In this document: positions 12,204 through 57,194 of the stretch, piece by piece
Layout of the letters: each line of letters opens with the position of its first letter
Position numbering within the stretch: position 1 is the stretch's first letter
Assembly (NCBI RefSeq): GCF_018143015.1
Contig: NC_054751.1
Coordinates: 28,513,438-28,577,437, forward strand
Source: Lytechinus variegatus
Lineage: Eukaryota
Length of the DNA stretch: 64,000 nt
Reading direction: 5' to 3'
Notes under the pieces: generated by a model
Databases searched by the model: none
What the model was told of the DNA's origin: nothing
What the model saw: the letters and a program-made list of their open reading frames with translations, nothing else
Translations under genes and position numbers: made by a program

Positions 12204-13239
12204 GTAAGTTCTGGGCCCTGGTGTCAGTGGTGGGTGTTTTGTAAAGCTGTTATGAGAGACTTTACGAACGACTGGTGATCCTTTCTTAGGAACTAAATCA
12301 ATGCCAATGGAAATTTGAAAGAAAGGATTATCACTTTTTCGTAAACTCATTTGTAACTTTATTATCCGTTTTACTAAACTTAATAGGTTTCATGACATTT
12401 GCTCTGGGGACAATTGCTCCACTGCAAATTCTGCTCATTAATGGAATGTCTGCTCAGTTAAAATGCAAAACAGATCGCTTTAGAAAAAGTACAATACCAT
12501 ATTTCATTGATTTACTAAATTCTAAATAAATTTTTCTTTTCATATACCCTTGAAATCAACTCAAATGTTTGCCATTGTTTTAGTCTCCATTTCAATCCAA
12601 TTGATATTTGAATTTTTCATTGTCTAATATTCATCACTTTTTAATATTGCATTTCTTTTTTCGTTCTATTTTATTATATTTAATGAATTTTTATGTACAA
12701 ATTTATTTATCATCTATGTACATTGTAAATTGTAATTGTTTGTTTTTATCCATGACTTGTGAACGTTTTATTGCAAACATGTTAATTTCAGCCTTCTGGC
12801 TTTGTAACATGTATTGTTTTTTATACGAAATAAACCATGATTGAATTGAATTGAATTGAATCCCTGGATTTAACACTACGCCCAATCCTCATCCTAACAT
12901 AAGACCCTATTGCAACCCTAACCCTATATCTTTTATGAAATAAAGACCGGAGCAACTGTCGCCGCAGCAAATGTCTTGTCACCGTTTAATATGTCATATT
13001 AGGGTATTTGATTATTGCTATCAGATTTGGTATCCCGATATTTTAAAGCTGTGAAAATAGTCTTTAAATCATCTTGCATGAATAATTGTCCAGCACACAT
13101 TCAACAAGACAAGTATGGATGGGATTTCAGTGGCTCTATTTGATACTGGAAAGCATCTTGTACATTTAACATGTCCCATTGCATATATCTGTACAAGTCT
13201 GTTTAAATATGTGTGATGATATTTCTTTGTTGTTCGTAG

Positions 13240-13332
13240 AAAATCAATTCCAAAAATGCTTTTGGGCTCCACCTGATTGACTACATGGCAGAGCTTCTGA
13301 AATCAAAGAAAGGAGAGATGACAAACTTTCAG
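13240..13332 (+). CDS. NCAPH: NCAPH exon 3 ([31 protein letters not shown])
   Basis: Acceptor ttcgtag| and donor |gtcagt. Strong match to human [27 protein letters not shown]. Confidence 0.9.
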
Positions 13333-13344
13333 GTCAGTACTACC

Positions 13345-13760
13345 TTTTACTGGTAAATTGCCAATTCGTCTACCGCCAACTCGTCCACTCACCATATGGT
13401 CTACCTTCATTTTAGTCTAATGCTGTATGTCCAACAACATTTTGTCTGTCAACCTTTTGGTCCAATGACCATTTGGTCCAATAATCACTTTGTCTAATCA
13501 CCAGTTCATCTATGACCATTTCGTCCAATGACCAGTTGGTCTAATACCCATCTTCTTTTCATTTATTTTGCACAATCTTAACACTTAGTCCACTTAGACC
13601 AAATGGTATGTGGACTAAATGGCTATTGGACCAGCTGGTTATTAGAAGGAATGGTATTAGACTAAATGAAAGTAGACCATATGGTGAGTGGACGAACTGA
13701 TGGTAGACCAAATGATATTAGACGAGTTGGCAATTGGACGAATTGGCATTAGACGAATCG
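13345..13760. repeat. Large imperfect foldback (hairpin) element starting 13 bp after the exon 3 donor, with internal ggtccaatgaccatttggtc repeats
   Basis: Left arm aattgccaattcgtctaccgccaactcgtccactcaccatatggtctacc is reverse-complemented at 13680-13760. Confidence 0.6.
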
Positions 13761-13808
13761 GAAATAAACCCCTTCTACTATTGATTTGTCCTCCAATACT
13801 TGATATAT

Positions 13809-14025
13809 GGCAGTGTAATGGTCTAGTGGTTATGACTCATCTTTAAATCAAAGGGGGCATGAGTTCAAATCCAAGCCATGTTGTGTTTTCCTTCAGCAAG
13901 AAATTTACTCACATAGTGCGACACTCAACCCAGGCAAGGTGAATGGGTACCCAGCAGGATTAATTTTGTGAATGCACTGAGCGCTGGAAGGCAGATCGAA
14001 CTAAAGTTGGGGTCTTTATTTGAAA
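13809..14025 (+). mobile_element. tRNA-derived SINE, full-length copy (tRNA-like head GGCAGTGTAATGGTCTAGTGGTTATGA...GAGTTCAAATCC; body ttccttcagcaagaaa...gtgaatgggtaccc)
   Basis: Head with D- and T-arm-like boxes but no pairing acceptor stem. The same family occurs at 30578-30800 (-), 38168-38335 (-) and 57195-57340 (+). Confidence 0.6.
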
Positions 14026-21970: not shown

Positions 21971-22166
21971 CCCGACCCACTTTTCCAGCGAACCTCGGCA
22001 GCTTTCGACGAGGGCGGGTCCTTCGGTCTCCTCCTCAACCACCTCCAATGCCGAGACGACGGCTGTGAGCTGCTCCTCGATTCTAATACGATCATCAATA
22101 ACGAGGAGGAACCATCAAAATCAGAGAAAGGCATACAGACCATGGTTGACATGAGTGAAATAACAG
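21971..22166 (+). CDS. NCAPH: NCAPH exon 7 ([36 protein letters not shown]...VDMSEIT), 196 nt, ends in phase 1
   Basis: Acceptor tgcttacag| and donor |gtaatg. Matches human [34 protein letters not shown]. Confidence 0.9.
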
Positions 22167-22394
22167 GTAATGCAAGATTAAAGATAAACACCAGTGGTAG
22201 CAACAACCTCAAAATGAGTTCGAACAGAGTCCAATTAAAATATTACTTAAGTGTTTGTATGTATGAATAAAAAAAATATGTGCCAAATATCTCTGGAAGA
22301 ACATGCGTCATTTCTGAGACATTAGCACAATAAGCACAGAATTCCATCAAATGTCTGGTATTTTCCAAGAAATATTAATAAACAGTCCCACATA

Positions 22395-34184: not shown

Positions 34185-37100
34185 GTGAACACTGCAGTGT
34201 TGTAGTGCCTTGATGCTCGGCCTTGGCCTTAAGGCGCCTTAAGGCCTATTTTTTCAAAGCCTTGGCCTTGAACATTCAAGCCTTGGCCTTGAGAGGGCCT
34301 TGGCCTTGAGGATTTTGAGCCTTGAAATTTCAAGGCATTTTCAAGGCTTTTTCAAGGCATTTTGTATTTTGTACTTTCATTTGTTTTATACAAGTAATTA
34401 TAAATGTTTCAATTGTTCTGTACATTTAATGACACTAAATACTACCAGTCAGCAGAAGCAGTAAGTGTACTTAGCAGTGCCATCAATTGCAATTATCATC
34501 ACATAATTATGTAACAAAGAGAAGTGATGAAAATTAATATTATTTATTGGTAATATGATGTAATCATGACTAATAAGGATAATGACAATATCAATAATAA
34601 TGATAATAATTATGATTAGGATTATAGTCAGTGGCGTAACTACAGGGGGGGAATGGGGGCACGTGCCCCCCCCCCATCGGCTGACTAAAAAAAAGGAGGA
34701 AAAGAGGGAGAAAGGAAGAGAAATGTAGTGGGAAAGAAGACATTTATGTTCATTATAATATGTTATAATTATGTTATGTTACATTACATAAGAAACACTT
34801 CTTTCATATAAATGAAACTTGCTCAGGGCATATGTCTTCATTGTTCCTGGTGCTCCCATTGTCTGTTTACCGAGATATATAATCCTGTTATACTAAAACC
34901 TCCCGTTTTCAAGTCAATAATAATAATAATAATAGAGGATACTTATTAAGCGCATAATAACTGGTCAAGTTCTCTATGCGCTTACCACCAAACATATATA
35001 CACCAAACTACCAAATATATTTGCTCGCACTTCGAGTTATTCTTTTACATGTACAATAGTATGCTTCTTTTTCATGAATACTTTAAGTGATTGTCCCATT
35101 TTAAGGTCTTAATATAAAACATTTCCTGTCCGTGCTTACGTTCGCAGTAGTGGATTTCTGAAAGATGTCTGCTCTCCATCAATTCCTAGAATGAGTCCTT
35201 AAAATGTCCCTTTTTCTGTTTTCTGATCTGAATATCAAAAATTTTCAGCTCGCGCTTTGCGCTCGCATCATTTGGTTAGTTAACTACGTAATGTCTTCTT
35301 GAATTCCTACAAACAAGCCTTAAAATGCCCCTCTTCAGATCTGAATTTCCTAAATTTTCAGCTCGCGCTTCGCGCTCGCAAGGTTTGATTAGTGAGATGG
35401 GTATGTTAATCATGATTACAAGCGCTTAATGTGCATGTTTAGATGTAATTCTAACAAAATCAGCAAGCGCTTATTGGCACTCCCATTAGATGACTACGGT
35501 GAGATGTGTATAATCTTAATAGATAAAAGATTCCTAAAATATAGTCCTTAAAATCTTCCTGTTTGGGGTCAATATTTACAAAAATTTCAGTTTGCGCTTC
35601 GCGCTCTTATTATTTAGCGAGACGGGTACGTATCATGATAACAAAAGATTGATTGTAATGTCCCTTTTTAGGTTTGAATATCAAAAATTTTAAGCTCGCG
35701 CTTCGCGTTCGCATTATTTGACAAGTGAGATACATGTCCGTTTATTGGCACTGTCCTTATAAAAATATCTCTATTAGGTCAGTATACCTGGCAACTGGGC
35801 GCGCTTCGCGCGCTCATAGGCAATTCCAAGTTTTTGCTGGTGCCCCCCAATGCCGTGACCCACGGTACGCCACTGATTATAGTGATTTTATGACAGGAAT
35901 AATTCTGACAGATTTGACTGCAATTTTGACAACAATTTTCATACCTTAAAAATAGCTTACTCTAAAGAATGATAACAAGGTTGATTTCTATTCCATTAGG
36001 TTTTCCTTGTATTATTTTCTTTAACCAACAAGAATGTTTAAGTCTTAATGATATTCTGAAAAGATTCGGTAAACTTAAACACAAACTTCAATTTCGTCAT
36101 TTCCAAATGGGCTATGGCATCAATGGCATGATGAGCCCAACAATTTTGAGGGGCCAAGCATGGCATACAGAGCAAAATTTTAGGTTTCAAAATCAACAAA
36201 TTTTGGATTGTGCTTGCATAAATTATTGTTAAGTAAGGTTCGCATTCAATTTACAAAAAAAATGCTTAGAATGTCTAGTTTTAAGGTCGGAATATTACAA
36301 ATTTTTAAGCTCGCGCTTCACGTTCGTATTATTTGACAAGTGAGATACATGTCCGTTTATTGGCACTGTCCTTATAAAAATATCTCTATTAGGTCAGTAT
36401 ACCTGGCAACTGGGCGCGCTTCGCGCGCTCATAGGCAATTCCAAGTTTTTGCTGGTGCCCCCCAATGCCGTGACCCACGGTACGCCACTGATTATAGTGA
36501 TTTTATGACAGGAATAATTCTGACAGATTTGACTGCAATTTTGACAACAATTTTCATACCTTAAAAATAGCTTACTCTAAAGAATGATAACAAGGTTGAT
36601 TTCTATTCCATTAGGTTTTCCTTGTATTATTTTCTTTGACCAACAAGAATGTTTAAGTCTTAATGATATTCTGAAAAGATTCGGTAAACTTAAACACAAA
36701 CTTCAATTTCGTCATTTCCAAATGGGCTATGGCATCAATGGCATGATGAGCCCAACAATTTTGAGGGGCCAAGCATGGCATACAGAGCAAAATTTTAGGT
36801 TTCAAAATCAACAAATTTTGGATTGTGCTTGCATAAATTATTGTTAAGTAAGGTTCGCATTCAATTTACAAAAAAAAATGCTTAGAATGTCTAGTTTTAA
36901 GGTCGGAATATTACAAATTTTTGAGCTCGCGCTTTGCGCTCGCATTATTTGATTGGTGAGTTATGTATCCTATTTATGAGTCACTAAATGCAGTCCAGAA
37001 CAGCCTCCTTTTCTGGTCAGTAAAAATTTCAGCTTGTGTTTTGTGCTCGCGTTAATTTGTTCAGTAAGATGCACACCTTTTTCATGATTACAAAAACAGC

Positions 37101-37905: not shown

Positions 37906-38167
37906 GATCTCAACAAATCTATAACATTGCTTGTTTCCATGGTTTCAAACAAACTTGTTAATCCTACTAAAGGCATTTTACTTGACTGATATGTCAGCTT
38001 GGGCCTGGGGGCAAGGATGGGGGAGGGGGGGTGGGAGGAAAATCCCATGATTGAGTACGTAGTATGCAACAATCTTTCAGAGAGTGTGGAAAATAATAAT
38101 AATAATAATAATAATAATAGGCATTTATATAGCGCCATCTATCTAGAAATATTCTATTCCAAGGCGC

Positions 38168-38335
38168 GATGTTATTATTACCCCGGCTTTAGCTCGAGCT
38201 GCCTTTCAGTGCTCATGCTTTCAAGGAATTAATCCTGCCGGGTTCCCATTCACCTCACCTGGGTTGAGTGCAGCACAGTGTGGATAAATTTCTTGCTGAA
38301 GGAAATTACACCATGGCTGGCCCGATATCATGAAA
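38168..38335 (-). mobile_element. 5'-truncated SINE copy (same family)
   Basis: Shares cccattcacctcacctgggttgagtgcagcaca.tgtgg...ttcttgctgaaggaaattac.ccatggctg with 30578-30800. Confidence 0.55.
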
Positions 38336-38899
38336 GACGAGAATATTTCGAGTTGGCCTTACATTAAAATATTTATAAAAAAAATCAACTCAACAACAAA
38401 TACTTCAGCACATTTAAACAGGAATGAAACCTTAGAATGTATAAAGCATTGTTGTTATTGTTGAGAGAGAGATAAAAAGAGGGGGAAAAAAGAAGAAAGA
38501 TAAGCTTTACCAATGCCAAAAAGTAGGCTATAAAAGCGAATTCCGGTATAGAAATATTTAATGCAGACATTTTGGATGTGTTGGAGGTGATTTACAGGGT
38601 ATCCCAGGGAAAAATGAAACTTGCAATCGTTTGCTACCAAAACCGTACATTTACTTTCGTGAGAAGTGTATGAATGAAAAGATACAGTTATCTTTTTTTT
38701 CATGTAGAACATGTTTTTGTGGAACTTGAATCATTCATTTTTACCCCTTTATTATCATAATTGTTATTGTTATTATTGGTTCGGTGTCAACTGTGCCTTG
38801 GAGGTGGAAAGCAGACTGAATCACTATGACCCACAGGTCTCTCCTTCAGATATGATTGATTTGGGGTAGTGCAGGTGGACCACTACACCGGGGTTTCCC

Positions 38900-39230
38900 C
38901 TACTCTTATATGAATAGTGCAGTGGGTTCTTAATGTGCAAAGGTGGCAACTCTCCTCTAAATGAGGTCTCCATTTAACATCCTATCCAAGGGACATGTTT
39001 CCCACTGTAATATACATGTGACTTGTATCTATGGAACAGGAGGGGGACACGTTAACACACAACGCAGGCTTCAGTTCTCCGCCCAGTGTGGACTCGAACC
39101 CATGAACTTTGGTTCGACAAGCAAATGCTTTGCCTACTTAGCTACAGTCCGACCTCTCTTATCCAGACATGTTGGGACCAGCACCAATCCGGATAAGGGA
39201 TTTATCCGGATCTGGGAGACCCAATATTAA
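38900..39230 (-). mobile_element. tRNA-derived SINE-like repeat (minus strand ...catgggttcgagtccacactgggcgg...). Its tail ccggataagggatttatccgg is mirrored by an inverted relative at 46735-46800.
   Basis: T-arm-like GGGTTCGAGTCCACA box. The inverted homologous segment lies just beyond the LTR element. Confidence 0.35.
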
Positions 39231-39754
39231 ATACAGGCAGCAGCGCTGCCGGCTGCCTCCCCAGGCCACCGGCGGTAGCTACACCATTGTAGTGGGCGCA
39301 CGGTAAAGACAATATTCACTGCAGAGTCAGTGCAAATTATAGGCATTGTTTTTATGGAAATTAAATCGATCGATGGCCAAAACTCTTGGATAATTTACCT
39401 GCTAAAATGACTGAGGTATACATCGAGCATACCTCGAAAGAGAGAAAATGACTCGATGAAACAAAATTTTACAATTAGATCATCCCGGCGGGTATCGCAG
39501 CTTCGCAATGTCAGCTATTGTTACACTGACTGTAGGCTCAAACATGATAGATGGCGCTGTCTGTATTGAGGCATAAAGTTAGCCAGCAAGACGTGTTGTT
39601 TTTCCCGCGAAGCAAAAAGAGAAACGTGATGAAATGTTTGTGCTGCACCTGATTTACTGGAAATTATCATTCCTGAAGTTCTTTTCGTGATTTGGGTGAG
39701 ATATTTACATGAAAAATATGTTTGGTGTAGGGTGACTATTTTGGGAAATATATG

Positions 39755-40648
39755 TGTAGCGGCACAGCTTTGCAAGACGGCCGGTGGCCGCCCACCGTCT
39801 TGCGCTGCCCACGTACAAAAAAAGGACGGGAGTCAAAGAATGACAAGTTCGATGAAGTTAAGTTGTGTATCAGGTTTTATTCTAAATCAAAGTCAAATTA
39901 CATGCTGGATAATAATAAATGTCGCATCTCTGGGCTGGACGACCGACGACAGACAAAAATCAAACCGACATGGCCTACGGCGGCAAAACAAATCGGGAAC
40001 GAAAAACTGCCCCTTGGCAACTAATCACTCCCTTTTTATCCCCTTTTTGGTCAAACACCGCGTGGCGAAAAAGCCTTTCCCCAAATCGACCCTATCACTT
40101 TTGGTGTAATGCGCGAAATTAATCCGCCTATAATGTAAGTATATAAAACGGAACTTAATTATTGTGTACCCCGATTCCAAATTCAAGTTCTTCGGCTTTC
40201 CATTATTCTTCCTACTTACGTAACTCTCTTGACCACTCCCCCAACTACTCTCTCAGTCAATTAATCCTCTTTTGCGACTCTTGTCACTTCAGCCACTCCC
40301 ACTCACAGCTCACTTCCACCAAGGAATTACCAGCACTCCTTGCTTCCACACCTGTTCACATTCTCTCTCTCTCTCTCTCTCTAATCACTGAAGAATGCAA
40401 GCGAGCCGAAGGACATGAATAAGAAGCAAAGTAGTAAATAACTGAAGTTCCAATGGACTTCTATTAGCCCTGAACGCCTAGCAACCCAGTCAGTTTGCCC
40501 TCTTTCACTTCCACATTCCAATCGCTAGCCTGGCCCAGAAAAACTAGCAAACGAAATCAACACCTTTAAGGAATGTAAACAATGGAAGAAGGCGAACGAA
40601 CTTCTTTACCCAAACAAACAAATCTCTATTTTCCATCCCGCTATAACT
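39755..40648 (-). repeat. 3' LTR of the Gypsy-like element (element runs on the minus strand)
   Basis: Near-identical to 45741-46635. Starts TGTAGCGGC on the + strand. The identical six-frame ORFs 39687..40109 and 45701..46096 are artefacts of LTR duplication. Confidence 0.85.
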
Positions 40649-40658
40649 CTCCCCTACT
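40649..40658 (-). promoter_or_regulatory. Polypurine tract (minus strand AGTAGGGGAG) immediately upstream of the 3' LTR
   Basis: Purine run directly abutting the LTR boundary on the element strand. Confidence 0.55.
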
Positions 40659-42864
40659 GAATCGATCTGTTCCATAAGATCGCAAAAAATAAAAAAAGAT
40701 TTGATACTGACGGTCGTCCATCCATGACACTTACAATTTGTCATAAACAATATAAACATTTCAACATCGTTCTATATTTATGCCAAATATTGTTCTTTCA
40801 AAATCTTCCCTTTTTGGCAAATAAATTGCATGTATATACATTGTACCTGTACCTTCTTCAATTAAAAATAGGATTTGGAGAGCTTCCATCAGGGGAATGT
40901 CAACGTATAGGCATTGGGAAGTGGATGACCCAAGCTTCCTGCTGCTTCATCGATGACATCACCCCTTCAAAGATGAACTTTCCAGACCCCTAAAAAATGA
41001 ATTGAAAGGTTTAGTTACAAATTCAACCTCTAAACATCAATTAAACCTTCATTATACCTCTTATGCACAACTAGTTATGTCAAAATACTACAGGTACATA
41101 AACATACACGTACAGTAGTAATAACAGCAATGATACATGTGAAAAGTTATCCATATCCGTATCTGTATCCACCTTACAAAATGAAAACCAACAGCAGTAA
41201 ATCTGGTCATCTTATATATATATAAAAAAAACTATAAATAACCTTAATTAACAAGTGCATGTTTCATGTCCAAAATGATACTAAAAATATCTTTTGCATC
41301 AGCATACTTGTATAATGCCCTAGTAAAAGCGTTTATTAATCAATTGAACATTAATCAATGGATGGGTTGTAATTGTAAACCATGAACAATCAACTTCAGG
41401 CATTATATATCAACCATGAACATGTATCATAAACAGTAAATATTTTGATATTGGACAGCATGCATGCACATGTTAGACCTCGCTCTGCTATGGTTACAAA
41501 TAATGACGCTTATTCTGAAAGTTACTATTATTTTGTGTTATACTTTCAGAATCATAACAGTGTTTTTTTTTTTTTTTTTTATGTACAATTCATCCTTTGC
41601 TTCCAAACAGATGACATAGTGCACCTCTAGGGTAAACCTCCACATTAAAAAGATAAACAATTGTTTTAAAAAATCCCTTTTTTCATTTGTTCAGATTTTA
41701 CAAGTCCTTTTACATGGGCAAAAAATAACTCAAACATTACTTGTTTTCTACCATTTACCAAGACTTTGGGATGATGTCAACACTACCATCAGAGGTGGAT
41801 ATCCCATGCCTCCTCCAGTTCCGTTTGACACCATCCTGCCGTCTGATATGTAGTTTTCCTATAAGGACAAATATAATTACATATTTACAGATTAATTAAT
41901 ATCACAAAATATATTAAATGATCCATGTCGGCAAACCAAACTGGGCCAGTCAATCAATAGAACCAAGCAATCATACATATAACCCATAATCACTGATGTA
42001 CATCATTTATCCCACAATAATAAAAAACTAATTAAATCCAAAAATGTGTCTGACAAAAACTTACTATTCTACGTAGGGTACGTAGGTATAGCTTCTTCCC
42101 CCTCTCTGTTAGATGCACTCCATCTTCCGGCAGGGAACGGTGCTCCCAAACCCAGAACATATCCCTATGTATTTGTATTATGTAGCATTCTTTCAAAGTT
42201 GAGTCACCTTCTCCAAAACTTCTCAATATTTGTTATTTACCACCAATTTCCAAATACATGCTCCTTACCCCACTCCCTACTAATCGTTTCACAAAGCTAT
42301 GTCCAAATAATAAAACTGTCAGTCATAAATAATTGAAGGCGGAGTCCAGCCCAGAGACCCAAGGTAAATTTTTAATTGTTTACTTATTACTTTATTTTTC
42401 CAATACAGACTTAGGTAAGTTGTATGGATTAGAATGAATGCCTTTACTTTGTCTTTAAGATCTCATCTGGACGACACTTGTTCCGCCTCTGGTACGCCCA
42501 CTTGTACGCCCCCATCCGTACTCTGGTTAGACCAGTACTCTCCCCTACTGTTTCTGTAGTTACTCTTTCTGGTACTAAAACATATTCATCCTCAAAATCT
42601 TTTCTAGAATCCTTGTAGCTAGCAATGATTTTCCTTCTCTCATAACCCAAAATCTTCCATATTTTGGTCAACCACATCTGATTCAGAAGGTACTTTCCTT
42701 ACTAGCCTACGATTCACTATCTTTGGATTACCTCCATTAAGGTCGGATACGATAAATATCCTCAGTAAGATTTATCCAATCAACAACATATAATTCATCA
42801 AAATAAACATTCTCCAACTTGTGTCTTTTACTAAAAGCACACTTCTTTAAGTAAACAAGAGATC

Positions 42865-44223
42865 CTATGCCCAGGGGAGGGGACTTGCAGAGATATTTGC
42901 ATCAGCTCGGGCCTTATTCCGGGCTGCTACCTTGTCAGTTCTTTCTTTGGCAACTTTTTGAGCCCTCTCAACCAACTCGGCTTGTTCTTTAACAAAGTCT
43001 TGTTCCCATTCTACATCAGACACACCCAACAAATGATCTAAAGGAATACGCTCTTTCCTACCAAACATAAGAGCAAAAGGGCTGACCCTCGTAGTTTCGT
43101 GGGGGGTGGTATTATACATGTAGACAAGATGAGGCAATAATTCAGGCCATCTACGTCTATCACGCTGATCCAGCGATTTGATTAGGCCAAATAAAGTCCT
43201 ATTGAATCTTTCAGCCTGAGCATTACCCTCAGGATGATATGGTGTTGTACGAGTCTTACGTATACCATAAAGCCTACATAATTCTTTTATCACCTGACCC
43301 TCAAAATTACGTCCCTGATCACTATGAATTCTATTTGGAATTCCATACTTTGTGAACCAGTGCTCTTGTAGAGCTTTAGCTACTGTTGAGGCGTGTTGAT
43401 TTCTACAAGGGATTGCCTGAGCTAATTTCGTATATACATCTGTAATAACAAGTACATCCTCAAATCCTCCCTTACCAGGATCTAACTTAACAAAATCAAT
43501 AGCAATAATTTCCAATGGACTAAATGCCATTAGATGTCTCATTGGGGTTCTTACCCGAGGCTGCATCTCCTTTGCCTTAGCACATTTAATACATCTTTTA
43601 ACATAAAATTTTATATCACGAGCCATGCCAGGCCAATAAACTCTTGACCTAGCTAATTGTTGAGTTTTATTTCTACCTTGATGTCCCCATTCATCATGAC
43701 ATCCAACTAAAATACTCTTACGCAAACACTGTGGGAGTAAAATTTGAAATATATTACCAAATAAAGGATCAAGAACCTTCCTTCCTAATATTCCATCTTT
43801 AACAGTAAAATTAGACCATTGATATAACCATTGTTTCAAACTATCCGGTTCTGAAAAATGTGCGGGAAATTCATCCCCCGGTTTCCAGTGCGCACTCCAC
43901 CGTTCCCACACAAATCTCAGTTCTGGGTCCATTTTCTGCATTTGAATGAATTGTTCAGGTGAAAAGGAAGGAAACAAATTAGAAAAAGTGGGACCTAACA
44001 AATTTTCTTGGTCAGAAACACCAGACTTCGATTGGATTTCATAAAAGGCTTGCTGCAAAGATTGCACAGTTTGTTTCTTTCCAAAATATTTTTGAAGTAG
44101 TTCAATAATACTTTTAGTATCCAATGTCCCCGAAAAACATCTAACTTCTTTACGTGCTGCACCTTCCAAATTTGCTCTGATTATGCCGCACTTTTGGAGT
44201 TTCAGAGATTTGATATTGTTCAC
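42865..44223 (-). CDS. Retrotransposon polyprotein remnant. A gag-like N-terminal part is fused to an integrase with an HHCC zinc finger (CHDEWGH...CIKC) and a DDE catalytic core (AIDFV...HSDQGRNF...PEGNAQAER).
   Basis: 452-aa ORF. The HHCC and D,D(35)E spacing is typical of Ty3/Gypsy and retroviral integrases. No RT or RNase H motifs (YXDD) anywhere in the internal region. Confidence 0.85.
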   Translation of the reverse strand: MNNIKSLKLQKCGIIRANLEGAARKEVRCFSGTLDTKSIIELLQKYFGKKQTVQSLQQAFYEIQSKSGVSDQENLLGPTFSNLFPSFSPEQFIQMQKMDPELRFVWERWSAHWKPGDEFPAHFSEPDSLKQWLYQWSNFTVKDGILGRKVLDPLFGNIFQILLPQCLRKSILVGCHDEWGHQGRNKTQQLARSRVYWPGMARDIKFYVKRCIKCAKAKEMQPRVRTPMRHLMAFSPLEIIAIDFVKLDPGKGGFEDVLVITDVYTKLAQAIPCRNQHASTVAKALQEHWFTKYGIPNRIHSDQGRNFEGQVIKELCRLYGIRKTRTTPYHPEGNAQAERFNRTLFGLIKSLDQRDRRRWPELLPHLVYMYNTTPHETTRVSPFALMFGRKERIPLDHLLGVSDVEWEQDFVKEQAELVERAQKVAKERTDKVAARNKARADANISASPLPWA

Positions 44224-44380
44224 AATAAAGATCTATTTCTTCTAACCATTCGGTAAGGGAAATGCCACCTTGTCCAGAAAATCTCTCAAGTCTGGTACTT
44301 CTATCACTAGGGGTAAACCTACACCTTTGTAATGCTCCGGTTAAACCGGTTACTAAATCTTCAACTAACTTTTCAGCCAT
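44150..44380 (-). CDS. gag-like N-terminal ORF of the LTR element (MAEKLVEDLVTGL...). It overlaps and frameshifts into the integrase ORF.
   Basis: Lies just downstream of the PBS on the minus strand and overlaps the start of the 452-aa ORF. The gag assignment is by position only. Confidence 0.4.
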   Translation of the reverse strand: MAEKLVEDLVTGLTGALQRCRFTPSDRSTRLERFSGQGGISLTEWLEEIDLYCEQYQISETPKVRHNQSKFGRCST

Positions 44381-45715
44381 AATTTTACTATGTATATGTG
44401 AATACTACTGAAAGGAGATGCAACCTCAACTACGATAAACCTTCAGTTATAACACTTATTAAATAGTCTACTATCTAACTCTGGGAGAGAAAGGTAACCA
44501 ATCGAACCAGACGCAGAACCTAGGAAAAAAGACATTTAGTTAAAATTGTGACATGTGTAAGTCCAGATCACAATAAACATTGGGGGTCTGACATAAAGGT
44601 AAGCACAAAAGACTGCAAATTCTATATAGATTTTCTGAAGATGTATTTTCACGTGTTGCCAAAGAACACTATCAAAATCTAGATTTTTACTATTATTCTG
44701 TCTAGTGGTATATTTGCAGAATTTATTTGTGCTATCCCCTTCAGATCCCAATGCACACTAATGCAAAACAGACATAATAACAAACTGCATAGCTACACAC
44801 ATATCTTAACACATCGTCATGTTGAGAAGATAACGAGTTCATATCTTTTCAGATACATTTCAAGCATATCTTATAGTTTGTAATATGAGAGTCTACATTA
44901 AATGTGAATGACTGTTCTGGAAAAATCTTAACAAGGGCTTCATTACATACCAGCGACTCCTGCTGCTTCACTCGCCAAGGCTATCGGCTTCCAAACGACA
45001 GTGCCAGCTTCCACCGTCGAAGATATCGAAGACAGGGTCTACCACACCACGTCGATGACGAAGATGAAGGGCCGTGTCGAAGCGTTGGTTGGAAGAACGA
45101 TGTCTCGGAGCTCCTCGATAGCGTCCAACTCCCCGAGCCGGACTAGCGCCTGCGGCCTTCAGTACCTAACCTCAATCCATCCTCATGAGACGACCAAAGG
45201 AAAAGCAATCGCCCTGCTGAGTTCCTTTACAGCCCCTTCCAAGACGATTCTCGCGCAGTTAAACGACTCCTCTCACCGCAGTGTAATGTGAAATCACCAG
45301 ACTTCGTCGGTACCAACTAATCCGGAGGGTTTTAGTGGAAACCAGCTATGCTACCCCGTCAGGTCTATTTGCAGTGGTTTTCACAGGTCCCTCGACTCCT
45401 CGCTACAATGCAGCCACGCGTGAGTCCCAGGACGAAGGGTTCTTTCTCCTGAGCTCAACGGCACATGTAAGGTCCCAACGTCGAAAACCCGGGCGATGTG
45501 GGGGCTCAATCCAACCCCTGCAGCTGAATTTCTCTCTCCAACGTTGAAGTTAAAATAATATCAATTCACATCCTCGAACAAAAAATAAGCCGGAACCGGT
45601 GACATGAAGTGAAGCTCTCCTTGTTGAATTTATCTCAATGACCGATAAACATTGTGTTTATGCGTAAAACCAGACTGAAGGACTAAAACGTTCCCCGAAC
45701 ATGCTGAAGATGACA

Positions 45716-45737
45716 GTCGACCCCATCCGTACTACCA
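45716..45737 (-). promoter_or_regulatory. Candidate tRNA primer-binding site (minus strand TGGTAGTACGGATGGGGTCGAC), 3 nt from the 5' LTR
   Basis: Starts with TGG (complement of tRNA CCA) at the expected spacing from the LTR end. The cognate tRNA was not identified. Confidence 0.4.
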
Positions 45738-45740
45738 ATT

Positions 45741-46635
45741 TTGTAGCGGCACAGCTTTGCAAGACGGCCGGTGGCCGCCCACCGTCTTGCGCTGCCCACG
45801 TACAAAAAAAGGACGGGAGTCAAAGAATGACAAGTTCGATGAAGTTAAGTTGTGTATCAGGTTTTATTCTAAATCAAAGTCAAATTACATGCTGGATAAT
45901 AATAAATGTCGCATCTCTGGGCTGGACGACCGACGACAGACAAAAATCAAACCGACATGGCCTACGGCGGCAAAACAAATCGGGAACGAAAAACTGCCCC
46001 TTGGCAACTAATCACTCCCTTTTTATCCCCTTTTTGGTCAAACACCGCGTGGCGAAAAAGCCTTTCCCCAAGTCGACCCTATCACTTTTGGTGTAATGCG
46101 CGAAATTAATCCGCCTATAATGTAAGTATATAAAACGGAACTTAATTATTGTGTACCCCGATTCCAAATTCAAGTTCTTCGGCTTTCCATTATTCTTCCT
46201 ACTTACGTAACTCTCTTGACCACTCCCCCAACTACTCTCTCAGTCAATTAATCCTCTTTTGCGACTCTTGTCACTTCAGCCACTCCCACTCACAGCTCAC
46301 TTCCACCAAGGAATTACCAACACTCCTTGCTTCCACACCTGTTCACATTCTCTCTCTCTCTCTCTCTCTAATCACTGAAGAATGCAAGCGAGCCGAAGGA
46401 CATGAATAAGAAGCAAAGTAGTAAATAACTGAAGTTCCAATGGACTTCTATTAGCCCTGAACGCCTAGCAACCCAGTCAGTTTGCCCTCTTTCACTTCCA
46501 CATTCCAATCGCTAGCCTGGCCCAGAAAAACTAGCAAACGAAATCAACACCTTTAAGGAATGTAAACAATGGAAGAAGGCGAACGAACTTCTTTACCCAA
46601 ACAAACAAATCTCTATTTTCCATCCCGCTATAACT
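45741..46635 (-). repeat. 5' LTR of the Gypsy-like element
   Basis: Near-identical to 39755-40648. Differences include G/A at about 40086/46072 and G/A at about 40335/46322. Confidence 0.85.
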
Positions 46636-47246
46636 GTAATCAAAGTGAGTTTACGTATAGGATTTTGTTTAGATTGAAATCTCATTTCCTCACGTACCAG
46701 TACTAGATTTAAAAAAAAAAGAAATCTTGGCAAGTGTGTGTCCGGATAATAGAGAGATCCGGATAAGGGGAGGCCGGATAAGAGAGGTCAGACTGTAATT
46801 AGCTCCCTCTTATTTTATTTATGGTTTCTTGTGGATAATATTGAGCTTATGAACTTTGTTTTTCTGAAAGGAAAGTAAAGTCTGAAAAACATTCTTGAAG
46901 TCGCATATTCCATGTGTTCTTTTTGCTATCTCAGTCATGCATGAATCATAAACATTGAGTTGCACTTTTAATAAAGAAAACTGTATACATTTCATTCATG
47001 AACATTTCATAAAGCAAAGTTATGATTTTTAAAGCAATAGACTGCAATGAATCTCAACCTTTTTTCTGGGACACACTGTCCTAAGGTAATATAGAGTGGC
47101 TTGTCACGATTTGCTTGCCGTCACCTTGTGTGCAGATATTCCTGTTAGCCCATATTTTTCTTTTAATCAACATTAAGTAGATTTAATGAAGCTTACGTAG
47201 GTGGTAGTATCCACGCAACTATCATTGAATTTCTTATCTTCTTCAG

Positions 47247-47351
47247 GTTAACAAGATTGACATACAATACGCCCGCACAGCTAAGAGGATGGATGTTAAA
47301 AAGCTTAAGACGCACATGTGGGGCTTCTTGACGAAGCCAGAATCAGACAAG
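47247..47351 (+). CDS. NCAPH: NCAPH exon 15 ([35 protein letters not shown])
   Basis: Acceptor tcttcag| and donor |gtgagc. Very strong match to human [29 protein letters not shown]. Separated from exon 14 by a 14-kb intron containing the LTR element. Confidence 0.92.
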
Positions 47352-47402
47352 GTGAGCAAACAATTTTACAGAGGTTGTTCAGAATTGTAGTGGTAATTTA
47401 TT

Positions 47403-48354
47403 GTCTCGCCCACCAGAGGTGAAGGCAAGACTTAGGGATCCAAATGTCGTCCATCCGTCACAAACCTGTAATGACACATAACTCCACAACCGTAAGTCGC
47501 TTTTTAACCAAACTTGGATGGTAAATGGACTTTGGGGACCTGCATGTTATGCTGCAGTCGGAGGTCACATGGTAAGGTCAAAGGTCATTTTCAGGTCAAC
47601 ATTAAAGTTTACATGCAAGACTCTCTTATGACACCTAACTCGGCAACCACATGTCGCTTTTCAATCAAACGTGGATGGTAGATGGACTTGGGGGACCTGC
47701 ACATTATGTTGCAGTCGGAGGTCACATGGTAAGGTCAAAGGTCATTTTCAGGTCAACGTTAAAGTTTACGTGCAGGACACCTAACTCCGCAACCGTAAGT
47801 CGCTTTTCAACCAAACTTGGAGGGTAAATGGACTTGGGGGACCTGCATGTTACGCTGCAGTGGGAGGTCACATGATATGATCAAAGGTCATTTTCACGTC
47901 AACGTTAAAGTTTACATGCAAGACTCTCTTATGACACCTAACTCCGCAACCATAAGTCGCTTTTCAACCAAACTTGGATGGTAGATGTACTTAGGGGACC
48001 TGCATGTTATACTGCAGTCGGAGGTCACATGGTAAGGTCAAAGGTCAATTCAGGTCAACATTAAAGTTAACATGCAAGACTCTCTTATGACACCTAACTC
48101 TGCAACCGTAAGTTACTTTTCAACAAAACTTAGATGGTAGATGTACTTAGGCGACCTGCATGTTATGCTGCTGTCGGAGGTCACATGCTAAGGTCAAAGG
48201 TCTTTTTCAGGTCAACATTAAAGTTTACGTGCAAGGCTCTTATGACAAGTGTTATTTCATCCAAGTCATTTCACAATGAAGTTTCATTATAATTCTCTTG
48301 CGTGCCCTCGCAAATCACGATATTTCTGGTTATTTTTCATAAGTGGGCGAGACA
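47403..48354 (+). mobile_element. Related TIR element (GTCTCGCCCAC...GTGGGCGAGAC) containing about 6 tandem units of roughly 150 bp with AAGGTCAAAGGTCA
   Basis: 11-bp TIRs. Internal tandem repeats of ...gacctgcatgttatgctgcagtcggaggtcacatggtaaggtcaaaggtcattttcaggtcaac... Lies in NCAPH intron 15. Confidence 0.6.
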
Positions 48355-48722
48355 CAAAATTGCTTTTGCCTTGTTGCTATTTGTACAGCTATCTTGTATT
48401 GAGCAAACATATGTTGCTTCTTTCTGACAAGATCATCATATAAAGATGCGTATCATATAAAGATGCGTAGTTGTAGTACACACCAAATTCATGATAAAAT
48501 CTGAAAGACCATAGTTAATCATCGTTACATCATTGTAGATCTGGATCTTGTTAAGTTACATGTACATAAACTAAACTTTGTGAAATGAAAGCTATCTTGA
48601 AAAACGACCACACTGAAGATTTCCAGCACAGATAAAGCACATATGCCATGCTTACTCAGATTTCTTCCGGAATCAGGTGGCACATATTTTTCATTTATGC
48701 ATCCAGACGCTGCATCATGTTT

Positions 48723-49631: not shown

Positions 49632-49790
49632 GAGAATGTCTGCAATGAGGCCGATGCGGACAGTGTTGCTGGAACCCAATCGTTTTGTGACATGTATACT
49701 ACCCTCCCTGACAAGCTTAGCAAAACAATGTCGAAGAACCTCAGTATTCCCATTGCGTTTGTGTGTCTTCTTCATCTCTGCAATGAAAAG
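49632..49790 (+). CDS. NCAPH: NCAPH exon 16 ([53 protein letters not shown])
   Basis: Acceptor tgtctctag| and donor |gtatgt. Matches human [21 protein letters not shown]. Confidence 0.9.
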
Positions 49791-49837
49791 GTATGTAGCA
49801 GCTTGATAGGTAATGATCACTTCGTGAAAATGATAAA

Positions 49838-52540: not shown

Positions 52541-53939
52541 TGAGTGTTTAATGAAGCTTTGCATAAGTTAGGAGTAACTTTATGAACAACTGGTGACCAT
52601 TTTCTTGTTGTAAATGGCATACACCAAATTTTTGCAAGTGTTGATATAGTTCATAAGAAAGGGTCACCAGTTCTACAGTCTTTATGAAGCACCCACGGGG
52701 GGGGGGGGGAGTTTCGAAAAGATATAAGTATGTCTTAGAATCGCACTGAAACGCCGACGCATACATGATATGCATGTCATGTCTTTTCTACTGCATGCAA
52801 CTAGACATTTAAGGGCGACTCTAGGTCATACTTAAATCTTTTTTAACACCCCCCTTCCCAGATCTTGTAAGTTTTCGGAAACTGTTATTACTTACAATGG
52901 ATTAGCCCTATCCATCTTGCCGATGTGCAGGTCAAAATTCAAAAATAGATTGGAAATACATTGGAATGCCAGTCAATATCTAAAATATGTATATTGTAAA
53001 AATCCATTTATTTAACAGTATTTGAGAGAAATTGACTTATTTCCATACTTATTGTTTTATATATTTTTACTTATGGTGTATATAAGCTAGAATATTGTGC
53101 CTTGTCATTTTTATATTGTAAATTATGTATTGCTTACCAGTAATGTGGCTCTAGATGGCTCTTTCATGAAAATTAGGGGGGGGGGTCCTAGCAATAAACA
53201 AATCTTCAGGGTCATCAAATTTAGATTTTAAAAAATATATATAAAGGGGGCGGGAGATGGATCGGGAACTTGATTTAATATGAATGAATATATCCAATCG
53301 CAAACAGTCTCAAATTCCGGACTGTATTTTAAGAAATATCTTGTTTAAAAGTACTTCCAAACTTTTGTTCTCTAACCAAGATTTTTACACCCTAATAAAG
53401 TTAAAAACAAAAACAATTTGATAAACAAGCTCGGGTATCACATGATTTGTTGGTAAATGTAAATTATTTCACATCAGTGCTAATTTTGCCATTTCAGTGA
53501 CAAATTCTTTGCCTGTTAATGCCATGATTTATGAACAATCCTTAAGAAAAACAACTGAGTAACAATATTCAGTAAACCTCAATTTGATTTTTTTTTGGGG
53601 GAGGCAAAAGACAAATTAGAGAACTTGGTGTACACCACTGTATAATGAAAGTTATAAGTACTTTGTAAAGATAAGAATTATGTTTTTCAGGAATTTAGAA
53701 TTTTGATTTTCAGCCCAATTTTCATGCTACATGTGGATATGGAATACATAGAATTGTACTGACCTCTGATTCTCTATATGAAATAAAATGTAAATAATAT
53801 AGCATCAATTGATCGATTCTTGTTTTTATTTCAAATTGCCTTCGTTTTTCTTTTTACTCTTATTATGCGATATATTTCTATTTGAGGACTAGTCAGTGAT
53901 TTGAAAGTCTGAATATTACCACTTTTTGAAAGCTTCTTA

Positions 53940-54590
53940 GAAGATATATTTTCTTCATCTCCTTTTCTCTCCATCTTCCCACCTGTCTTCATCTTCTATC
54001 CTCTCTTTCCTTCCTTTATCTTCTATCCTCCATCTTCTTTCATCTCTCTTCATCTTATTTTATCTCTTATCCTCTCTTCATCTTCCTTCATCTCTTTCTT
54101 TATCTTCTATCCTCTCCATCTTTCCATCTTTCTTCCATTTTTCTCCATCTTTTTTCCCTCTCCTCATTTTCCTTCATCTCTTTCCTTTCTTTATCTTCTA
54201 TCCTCTCTTCATTTTCCTTCATCTCTTTCCTTTCTTTATCTTCTATCCTCTCTTCATTTTCCTTCATCTATTCCCTTTCTTTACCTTTTGTCCCTTCATC
54301 TCTTTCCTTTATTTTCAATCCTTTCTTTATCTTCCATTCTCTCTTCATCTCTTTCCTCTCTTTATCTCATCTCTTTTCTTTCTATATCTTTTTTCCTCTC
54401 CATCTTCCTTCATCTCTTTTCTCTATCTCTCATCCTCTTTCTCCCCTCTTTCCGTCTCTCTCTTCATCCTCTATTCTCCTTCCCTTCCTTCTACTTTTTA
54501 TCTTCCTTTGTTTCTTCCTTTCTTCATCTTTCCAACTCTTCCTCTCCTCTCTCCCTCTATCTCTTCTTGTTTTCATCTTCTCTGCCCCCC
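53940..54590. repeat. Pyrimidine-rich (CT) satellite, about 45-50-bp units (ccttcatctctttcctttctttatcttctatcctctcttcatttt)
   Basis: Repeated units read directly. Gives the low-complexity ORF 54288..54629. Confidence 0.75.
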
Positions 54591-57194
54591 AGTGCTCATT
54601 TCAACAATAGACACAAACAAACAAATTGAGGTAGAGACAATGGCATGGTGTTTTACAAGTGTCTGTGTTTAAAAGTGAGAGATCTTCCTGAATATCTTCC
54701 CTCCATCAAAATATATGAGATACTAAACCTAGCTAAAAGAAACCCTACAATCAGAGCAATTTAAATCCTCTTTGCATTTCTATAAACCTAAGAATCAGCA
54801 AGTTTTGTTTGAAAATGGACAATATAAAAATGGTTCCATTTTGAATTGCATGATGATAAAGAGAATGGAAAAAACTAGTGTTGAAATAAATTATGTTTAA
54901 AAGCATGGTCATTGGCATATATTTGGCAAGGAAATACCCAGAATAGTATTACAGAATAACAATCTAATGAATTAATTGAATACTCCTTGTATGCTAGATA
55001 ATTACTACATAAGAGGACATAACAAAAAAGAGCATCTCATTTCTTAGAAAAAAATGGAGCATGAAGTTAAAATGTTTGCTGAAATGTTCATTATAAATAT
55101 TTCATACATGAAATTAAGACGTTAGAGTTCATAATCTTTTTTCTCCCTTCTTTTCTTTCTCCCTCTCTTTCTCTGTACTTGACATAATATGGAAATCAAA
55201 TGTCATTTATATGAATTCATAGTACAATTTGGTTTCATTTTGGATTTCTAAAATTCACATTAAATAATTATTAACATGATCTAATACTCTAAATCAAATC
55301 ATTAAAATGGTTATCATGATTTTTCTCAACATTATAACATCAGTGGCGGCTCTCGTTAATTAACCCTCGTTTTCGTGAAAAAAGGCAATGCACATATATT
55401 CGTAATATACACAATACACAAAGTGCAAACAATTAACCATAAAACTGGAAATCAATGCACACAAATATACATATCAGAATGTCAGGGAGATGTTGATGAA
55501 AATATGCATGATAATCAATTCAACCCTTTAACACATGTGGTATCTTTTTGAAGGGCGATTACAGATATAATTCAATTCAATGAAGGCATTAGTATGAAAT
55601 ATCCACTCAAAGTACATTTGAAAGGGTGTAAGTATTGTCAAAGTCACAAAGATGAAACCAACTCCAGATCAAATTCATATTTATTATTTCCAATGACATG
55701 TGGTCAGTTTCATTGCTATGATTGTACATGTAGCAAATCCAAGGCAGAACCGAGATTGTTTGGACTAGTCCTTCAAAAGATAATGAGTGTGGGTCACTTT
55801 ACTGGGACCAGTTTCATAGAGCTGGTTATTACAAATAATGCACAGCTTAACAGAAGACTGGTACCATTACTTGTCTTGACGGAGATTCCCTGAAATCAGC
55901 CATTATGACTAATGTGGGAGTACATGTCCCTGTAACCGTAATCAAACTCTGACTATATTGAATTTCACCTATGGATGACCGATCAACATGAGAATTTTAA
56001 TCTGCAAAGTTTTGATCTTGACTGGAGCTAATGAGAACTGATCTAGCACCAAAGAAAGGGTCACAAGTCGGGCATTAAGTTGTGAGAAGCATAGAAACAG
56101 CTTTATGAAACCTGCCCCAACGCCCTAACAAATAAGGTGAATACATGTTTGTTTAATACAGTGACGGCAAAGTTTCTTGATAAATCAATCTCATTACAGA
56201 TTTACTTCATGTTTCCCTACGTAAATAGATTTTTTTGTAATTTTCATTTTACTTCTTAGGGATGATAATTGATGATTGTATTGTTTGCAACAAAGTGCAT
56301 CACAATTTGACCAGTACGCAAACCATTACAATATTTTGTGATTTCTACAAAAAGACGATACATTACATCATAAAGCTATGTGAAAATAACTGGAGTCTAT
56401 TGAACACTTCGATCACAATTACACTAATTCAATATGAATGTAAGTTAATTTCACAGAAAACACAAACGGAAATATGAGCTTCAATTCCAAAGAGCACCCA
56501 CTCAGACATTCTGACCATAAAATTCAATAAAGTAATGTTGAGTGTTCTTCATACATAGTTAAGAACTAGGACAAAATGTTCATGCAGTAGGCATCCTTTT
56601 TTCCTTTAAATATCAAATGCAAAAATTGTGGATGTAGCAGATAAGTCTCAATATACTTAATTTCCACATATTTCATTCCAGCTTCAAGTTTAAGAAGGTT
56701 GAAATTTTCAGAACTTGAAAGGCATGAGAATTGTGATAATTCTTAAAACTAACCAGTGTGTTATATATTTGTATTAGTATTACTTGAGATGAATAAGGGA
56801 TTTTTAAAATATCTTTTTATTTCCATTTTTTTTTAGTGAGATCCTCAAAAGAGGTACAGCTCAAACATGATCTAAAATGAGAGCAAAAGTATCCTGATCT
56901 ACATAAGTGTCACAGAAGTGACTTTTCTCCCCAAACATATTCACCTTGGTAAAATATATTCCAGCTCTAAAGTGGATCAACAGTTATCCAGTATTACTGT
57001 TAACAATAATGGTGCATATCAAATAAATATTGCACTCAAATATCACAAGTGATTGGGTGCTTGCCTGACACTTCTTAACCAGAAAGGCAACATTACACTT
57101 AGATGACAGGGAAAGGTGTCATTACTTTGAGCAACCATTGTTGAGAGCTCTTACAAGACAAATCACTTTGGGACCACATAATTCAGGACCCCGT

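Follow-up and report, generated by a model that had tools for sequence, protein, structure and literature searches.

The 64,000-nucleotide stretch of Lytechinus variegatus DNA that was analysed here (contig NC_054751.1, positions 28,513,438 to 28,577,437; referred to below as the window) carries, at its positions 39755-46635, a long terminal repeat (LTR) retrotransposon that is very probably a non-autonomous, internally deleted copy of the Ty3/Gypsy type, mobilised in trans and lying in antisense orientation within an intron of a gene for condensin subunit 2. All of the cis-acting parts of retrotransposition have been kept: both LTRs, the primer-binding site (PBS), the leader together with the beginning of gag, the polypurine tract (PPT) next to the 3' LTR and an internal copy of that tract. 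The element cannot make gag, protease (PR), reverse transcriptase (RT) or a complete integrase (IN), yet its LTRs are 99.8% identical. Its features, with the element read on the minus strand (element coordinate e = 46636 - w, where w is the window position), are these:

45742-46635, minus strand: 5' LTR, 894 bp, aligned without gaps to 39755-40648 and 82% identical to the 3' LTR of the related locus L007
45720-45737, minus strand: PBS TGGTAGTACGGATGGGGT, 18 nt, placed 4 nt past the 5' LTR and unique within the window
44381-45719, minus strand: untranslated leader that separates the PBS from the gag ATG, its sense frames without a Pfam match
44038-44380, minus strand: N-terminal remnant of gag with a PNMA-like capsid N-terminus, about 113 residues out of some 370, located with tblastn
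44037-44038, minus strand: deletion junction, gag ...QQAFYE joined to IQSKSGVSDQE... of the linker between RNase H and IN
42865-44223, minus strand: 452-codon open reading frame (ORF) made up of the gag tail, the RNase H-IN linker, the HHCC zinc domain and the DDE core, and cut short before the C-terminal domain
about 43570-43734, minus strand: HHCC zinc domain of the integrase, within the 452-codon ORF
about 43231-43518, minus strand: DDE catalytic core of the integrase, within the same ORF
42398-42882, minus strand: integrase C-terminal domain and pol tail (GIGSLVYLKKCAF...HSNPYNLPKSVL), present and broken over three frames
42540-42550, minus strand: internal copy of the PPT 11-mer, CAGTAGGGGAG, inside the coding region of the integrase C-terminus; a candidate central PPT
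42032-42322, minus strand: remnant of a third ORF (ORF3) for a GDSL/SGNH-type hydrolase, with FGHS, GEG and DGVH kept and an in-frame stop
40660-42031, minus strand: 3' non-coding region, 76-78% identical to its counterpart in L007-L009, without a Pfam match
40649-40659, minus strand: 3' PPT, CAGTAGGGGAG, adjoining the 3' LTR and conserved in relatives
39755-40648, minus strand: 3' LTR, 894 bp, an ungapped match to 45742-46635

A direct-repeat search of 38000-48500 finds a single long repeat pair, at an offset of 5987. Compared base by base, its two 894-bp members differ at two positions, both of them transitions (40085, A/G, and 40333, G/A), with no gaps (99.78% identity), which bears out a first-pass annotation of the locus that had put the LTRs at 0.9 kb and their differences at two or three. 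Identity collapses abruptly just beyond both ends of the repeat, and a chance origin of such a pair is impossible. Since the LTRs differ at only 2 of 894 positions, the insertion is probably recent. Read in the sense direction, the 5' LTR begins AGTTATAGCGG and ends GCCGCTACA, followed by AAAT and then the PBS. The 3' terminal CA is thus present, and the 5' terminus may be a TA... preceded by three extra nucleotides. The LTR of L007 starts in the same way; those of L002, L006 and L014 begin with TG. The three nucleotides in front of the 5' LTR, AGT, are those that would be expected between PPT and LTR start by analogy with L002 and L003 (1 in 64 by chance). The flanking sequence reads ...CTTTGATTAC upstream of the element and CATATATTTC... 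downstream, and the 64-kb window contains no further copy and no solo LTR.

The second point is the loss of PR, RT and RNase H. Pfam models were run on the three sense frames of the 5' LTR and internal region, with stops read as X and E values up to 1 accepted; the plus-strand frames of the internal region were covered by tblastn with proteins of relatives. Only integrase families appear in the sense frames at that threshold. The 1380-aa pol of the full-length relative L006 matches the window by tblastn through residues 844-1301 only, residues 1-843 giving nothing, and when both strands of the complete window were compared by tblastn with the L003 proteins for PR, RT and RNase H, nothing matched except residues 27-139 of gag, IN and the linker between RNase H and IN. 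Pfam and tblastn thus agree with the earlier statement that PR, RT and RNase H are entirely missing, the region after the ORF included. The order RT-RNase H-IN, which is absent here, is present in the pol of L003, L005, L006 and L014, and it follows that the window copy is a derivative of this family rather than an autonomous member of it.

The gag gene starts at the ATG at 44380 (MAEKLVEDLV...) and, in tblastn comparisons, matches residues 1-113 of the 374-residue L006 gag and residues 27-139 of L003 gag. The deletion begins at about gag residue 113 in L006 numbering (139 in L003) and ends in the linker between RNase H and integrase, with a GAAA-type microhomology and without GT..AG boundaries at the junction. 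About 3.5 kb is missing there relative to L003, comprising the gag C-terminus, PR, RT and RNase H. Restoring this and the losses in ORF3 would bring the element to about 10.6 kb, in agreement with the length of L006. The ORF that spans the junction had been described as an intact-looking 452-aa gag-integrase fusion with HHCC and DDE motifs. The motifs are there: the ORF matches Integrase_H2C2 (PF17921, 68 bits) and rve (PF00665, 49.5 bits) and nothing else in Pfam, and its HHCC (HDEWGH...CIKC) and DDE (D243, D302, E338) residues are invariant in the alignment with relatives. Its intactness is another matter. The ORF opens at a GTG, its first in-frame ATG lies at about codon 104, and it ends early. 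The gag ATG does not read into it because one extra C near 44195 (ACTCCAAAAG, compared with ACTCAAAAG in L001) shifts the frame by +1. The description of the element as gag and integrase only is right about the joining of the gag N-terminus to integrase and needs correcting for the 2.2 kb after the ORF, which holds the broken pol tail, the second PPT and the ORF3 remnant.

The state of the coding sequence changes sharply along the element. The zinc domain and DDE core are free of indels and 96-98% identical to L007, from which the IN core differs by 23 synonymous and 13 non-synonymous changes; the resulting ratio of non-synonymous to synonymous substitution rates (dN/dS) of 0.14 fits divergence that accrued mostly in functional ancestors. 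From e3754 onward at least 8 indels relative to L007 interrupt the pol tail and integrase C-terminus; past the core, identity to L007 falls to 85-93%, and in the LTR to 82%. This fall suggests a mosaic ancestry.

Between the LTRs the internal region (40649-45741, coding strand minus) measures 5,093 bp, close to the 5.1 kb first estimated, and PBS and PPT are both in place, as had been reported. The PBS is exactly complementary, 18/18, to the 3' end of tRNA-Leu(UAA) with its CCA. The assignment was made through a metagenome scan for the PBS complement, which gave 120 loci, 119 of them chance matches; in the remaining one (L106, JAAUXV010160147.1) the match coincides exactly with the final 15 nt of a tRNA-Leu(UAA) gene of eukaryote type, 83 nt long. 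It was this gene, rather than one of the host's, that supplied the match. A tRNA search found no tRNA gene in the window or in the related loci, an Rfam scan of the whole window matched no family, and the loci from the PBS scan yielded no extra copies of the element. The identical PBS is found in L002 and L006, though their LTRs and leaders are otherwise unalignable with those of the window copy, and L003 has a 2-nt variant of it. Leader and PBS together occupy about 1.36 kb in the window copy; the L006 leader is about 0.97 kb long.

At the other end, the sequence that precedes the 3' LTR reads, in sense, ...GATTCAGTAGGGGAG. The PPT 11-mer occurs in two exact copies in the window, with 0.01 expected. 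Both copies are retained in L001, L002, L006 and L007-L010, including relatives that are just 72% identical, the internal copy always at the same place. The internal copy is on this pattern a plausible central PPT, but its conservation could stem in part from coding constraint (the TVGE motif).

The family to which the element belongs is best seen through its integrase. A protein search returned 953 homologs. Those that carry a name are pol proteins of Ty3/Gypsy elements in fish, echinoderms, cnidarians and molluscs; the nearest are unnamed proteins of ENA assemblies (P0001, 96% identical, and P0002, 67%). At the nucleotide level L007-L010, from four marine metagenome assemblies (Tara Oceans among them), are 91% identical to the window copy over the IN region. 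For L003 and L006 the identity is 62-72%. L007-L010 have an RNase H domain upstream of IN and ORF3 downstream, their contigs ending before RT. Full-length relatives with RT do exist, in other assemblies: L006 (10,680 bp, with 913-bp LTRs) encodes a 374-aa gag (PNMA, zf-CCHC), a 1380-aa pol (RVT_1, RT_RNaseH, Integrase_H2C2 and rve) and a third ORF of 188 aa, and L003 (GCA_014845345.1) and L014 are further examples. Of Ty3/Gypsy features the window copy has the LTRs, PBS, PPT and an H2C2 and DDE integrase with Gypsy pol homologs, and has neither an RT-containing pol nor a 4-6 bp target-site duplication (TSD); as in a non-autonomous derivative, RT has been lost and LTRs, PBS, PPT and leader have been kept. 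As a separate observation, a stop and a frameshift (FVWER*) lie between RNase H and IN in L007-L010 and L001 (L007:600-680, L001:780-860), and the window copy reads through at this point. The FVWER* form is widespread, since an identical 475-aa IN product (P0121) is found on contigs of four marine metagenome assemblies.

Two other RT-less elements give the window copy its context. L002, from the same assembly as L006, is a complete 6.2-kb element with identical 909-bp LTRs, TG...CA ends and the TSD GTAA; setting aside two deletions (L006 7464-10693 and about 12541-13951), its identity to L006 is 99.5%, and its IN differs from that of L006 at 5 of 442 codons. In L001, a third derivative, the RNase H tail follows directly on gag ...ANLEGAAR, and the synonymous divergence (dS) from L007 is 0.01. 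The points at which the N-terminal part of gag meets the tail of RNase H or the IN linker (L001:439-700, L002:9063-9700 and window 44037/44038) are different in each of the three. The junctions differ, carry short microhomologies and lack GT..AG, which argues for independent template-switch or microhomology events; judged from these sequences, derivatives consisting of the gag N-terminus and IN have formed independently at least three times (window, L001, L002). Reverse transcription of a spliced, subgenomic RNA was considered as their source and is ruled out: no deleted segment has GT..AG boundaries, and the junctions have 3-5 nt of microhomology. A long-lived RT-less lineage that keeps IN is likewise ruled out, L002 being 99.5% identical to its full-length partner and L001 separated from L007 by a dS of only 0.01.

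A sequence of events that would generate the window copy can be proposed. Template switching by reverse transcriptase at the short microhomology GAAA would have removed the segment from gag to the RNase H-IN linker; the defective RNA would then have been packaged, reverse-transcribed and integrated by proteins from intact family members in the same genome. The RNA that gave rise to this insertion would already have been defective. Most of the coding damage probably predates the insertion, because it is far above what an LTR divergence of 0.2% allows, and the source copy was in that case already non-autonomous. The trans mobilisation of the window copy is what we infer from this, with L002 and L006 as precedent, and the first reading of the element as a non-autonomous deletion derivative fits the loss of PR, RT and RNase H as measured against full-length family members.

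Several observations weigh against this account. The canonical TG is missing from the 5' end of the LTR. No TSD is found at the window copy for any LTR boundary within 4 nt, just as the first-pass annotation had failed to find one, and the copy may not, therefore, be a simple integrase-mediated insertion. The RT-bearing relatives are known from assemblies other than that of the window. No second copy with the QQAFYE/IQSKSG junction was found (those of L001 and L002 differ), a weak negative, sampling being very limited. The missing TSD is the main anomaly, which could reflect recombination between two copies, aberrant integration or chance. It also means that the identity of the LTRs may not strictly date an insertion. 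The first of these possibilities amounts to a rival account, in which the element is a chimera produced by ectopic recombination or gene conversion between two insertions of the same young family, its LTRs coming from separate events. The family is clearly active, with near-identical copies in related genomes, and clean 4-bp TSDs are found in two of the three complete relatives (GTAA in L002, TTTC in L014), so that their absence here stands out; the third, full-length L006, also has none, and such events may be common. We nevertheless regard a chimera as unlikely, the flanks resembling ordinary intron with no positive sign of rearrangement and the 64-kb window offering neither a second copy nor a solo LTR as a partner. 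Were it true, no matching TSD would be expected and the LTR identity would not date an insertion, but the classification as a non-autonomous derivative of Gypsy would stand.

It is much less probable that a full-length element was inserted at this locus and acquired its deletion and lesions in place. That no second copy shares the junction would fit such a history, but an LTR divergence of 0.2% predicts just 5-10 or so changes in the 5.1-kb interior, and comparison with L007 shows two large deletions, the shifted frame in gag, no fewer than 8 indels across the pol tail and, in the 3' part, a divergence by substitution of 13-15%; L002, an analogous RT-less derivative, has identical LTRs and a TSD. 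The preserved state of the integrase core raises another question, whether the zinc domain and core might be functional and under selection in an element that is semi-autonomous and borrows just gag, PR and RT. The core has no indels and a low dN/dS relative to L007 in the midst of indel-riddled neighbours, and all three independent derivatives keep IN. On the other side, in-frame ATGs are absent from the ORF up to about codon 104, the start codon of gag sits in a different frame, and indels have destroyed the C-terminal domain. A low dN/dS is to be expected where divergence accrued in autonomous ancestors, and identity drops sharply, from 97% to 87% and then 82%, in a way that suits a recombinant mosaic. 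The intact IN of L002 reflects youth, not selection, because just 5 of its 442 codons differ from the full-length partner. We consider selection on this integrase very improbable. It is also quite improbable that the repeated appearance of such derivatives points to a need for the integrase region in cis, which would make them a semi-autonomous class rather than random decay; the reason could be the internal PPT inside the IN region or a preference of the truncated zinc-and-core integrase for its own RNA or cDNA. Finally, an integrase ORF inside a host gene, with homologs named 'Gypsy retrotransposon integrase-like protein 1', might call to mind a domesticated host gene, if not an assembly artefact, but the chance of either is negligible: LTRs, PBS and PPT flank an ORF that is truncated, lacks a proper start and is antisense and intronic, and its relatives are ordinary multi-copy elements. 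The LTR/PBS/PPT anatomy effectively refutes both. The internally deleted, trans-mobilised Gypsy copy is thus the account that we retain.

The host gene is identified by five plus-strand segments that match Pfam Cnd2. Exons lie at these positions:

about 21974-22168, plus strand: condensin subunit 2 exon DPLFQRTSAAFDEGG
47229-47366, plus strand: condensin subunit 2 exon with the YARTAKR motif, the nearest downstream host exon
about 49644-49793, plus strand: condensin subunit 2 exon AFVCLLHLCNEK

With plus-strand exons on both sides, the element is intronic and antisense and lies just upstream of the YARTAKR exon, in agreement with its original placement in an intron of an NCAPH-type gene. This antisense intronic position suggests that the host gene is unaffected, and the insertion is probably neutral. 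A search with the condensin exons returned fragments without names, the best of them 97% identical in amino acids and 82% in nucleotides and so from a different species; in a related assembly examined for an empty site, the introns of L012 do not align to the window. Three other features of the window were noted in passing. In the next intron, just past the YARTAKR exon, a 157-bp unit is repeated in tandem about 5 times (85% matches) over 47471-48247. Near 36 kb, 35916-36110 and 36531-36725 form a direct duplication with a spacing of about 615 bp; it showed up in pairs of weak tblastn matches and of ORF segments (35722-36229 and 36337-36844) and is probably a local repeat or a fragment of another transposon. 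At 53913-54669 the plus strand is free of stops in all three frames for about 700 bp, and the bin 54001-55000 has a GC skew of -0.58 and an AT skew of -0.35, which suggests a low-complexity block or simple repeat.

The remnant of ORF3 in the window copy lacks about 266 bp, including the GTND block. Intact forms of about 190 aa are found in L006, L010 and L014, just downstream of pol in the position of env:

L006:12525-13091: ORF3
L010:1911-2525: ORF3
L014:9001-9600: ORF3

In Pfam the 188-aa protein of L006 reaches 34.5 bits for Lipase_GDSL_2 (threshold 32.9) and 31.4 bits for Lipase_GDSL (threshold 23.6), and the blocks FGHS, GEGG, GTNDL and DGVH are conserved among relatives. By Pfam the relatives' ORF3 has no transmembrane or coiled-coil signature, and comparison with PDB sequences gave only insignificant matches. 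A profile search of a database of 5.8 billion proteins found just 36 homologs, none of them named, with lengths of about 190 aa. The context of three was examined: one follows a Gypsy IN (L013), one a complete gag-pol (L014, 35% identity) and one has no obvious pol upstream (L015). In L013 the ORFs for Gypsy IN and GDSL are immediately preceded by a Bel/Pao-type element (DUF1759, RVT_1, Pao_retrotransp and DUF5641; L013:369-6342), an arrangement that could be a nested or adjacent insertion.

The combination of gag-pol with a GDSL ORF3 is already known from the Vesta LTR retrotransposons of bdelloid rotifers, whose ORF3s encode GDSL esterases/lipases (Rodriguez, Kenefick and Arkhipova 2017, PMC5408684); in a literature search the rotifers were the sole case found of a GDSL/SGNH ORF3 in LTR retrotransposons. 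An esterase ORF1 is also known from the CR1, L2 and RTEX long interspersed nuclear elements (PMC3905857). Like Vesta, the full-length relatives (L006, L007-L010, L013 and L014) have a stand-alone ORF3 past pol. They differ in host group, in their PNMA-like gag and in that the closest relatives of the window copy come from marine (Tara Oceans) metagenome assemblies. In the window copy ORF3 is only a broken remnant, and the likeness to the Vesta ORF3 is one of architecture alone.

The element in the window is, then, a clean non-autonomous Gypsy derivative and an ordinary kind of genomic parasite, which says that its family is active in this genome now or was recently and matters little beyond annotation; the GDSL/SGNH ORF3 of the family and the independent formation of its gag-integrase derivatives may be of interest to specialists. 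Internally deleted LTR elements that are mobilised in trans are represented by LARD-type elements and Dasheng/RIRE2 in plants and by ETn/MusD in the mouse. They have in common near-identical LTRs, a PBS and a PPT, the loss of RT and the need for a related autonomous element. TelKA2n retains the 5' portion of gag, as does the window copy. Most of the derivatives that have been described lose all of pol, whereas the window copy keeps the zinc domain and core of IN as an open frame, has no TSD and has only a presumed autonomous partner in the same genome. Its internal PPT may have a counterpart in Ty1 and HIV-1, which have two polypurine tracts, the central one within the integrase coding region; the window copy has an exact second copy of its PPT in the coding region of the integrase C-terminus.

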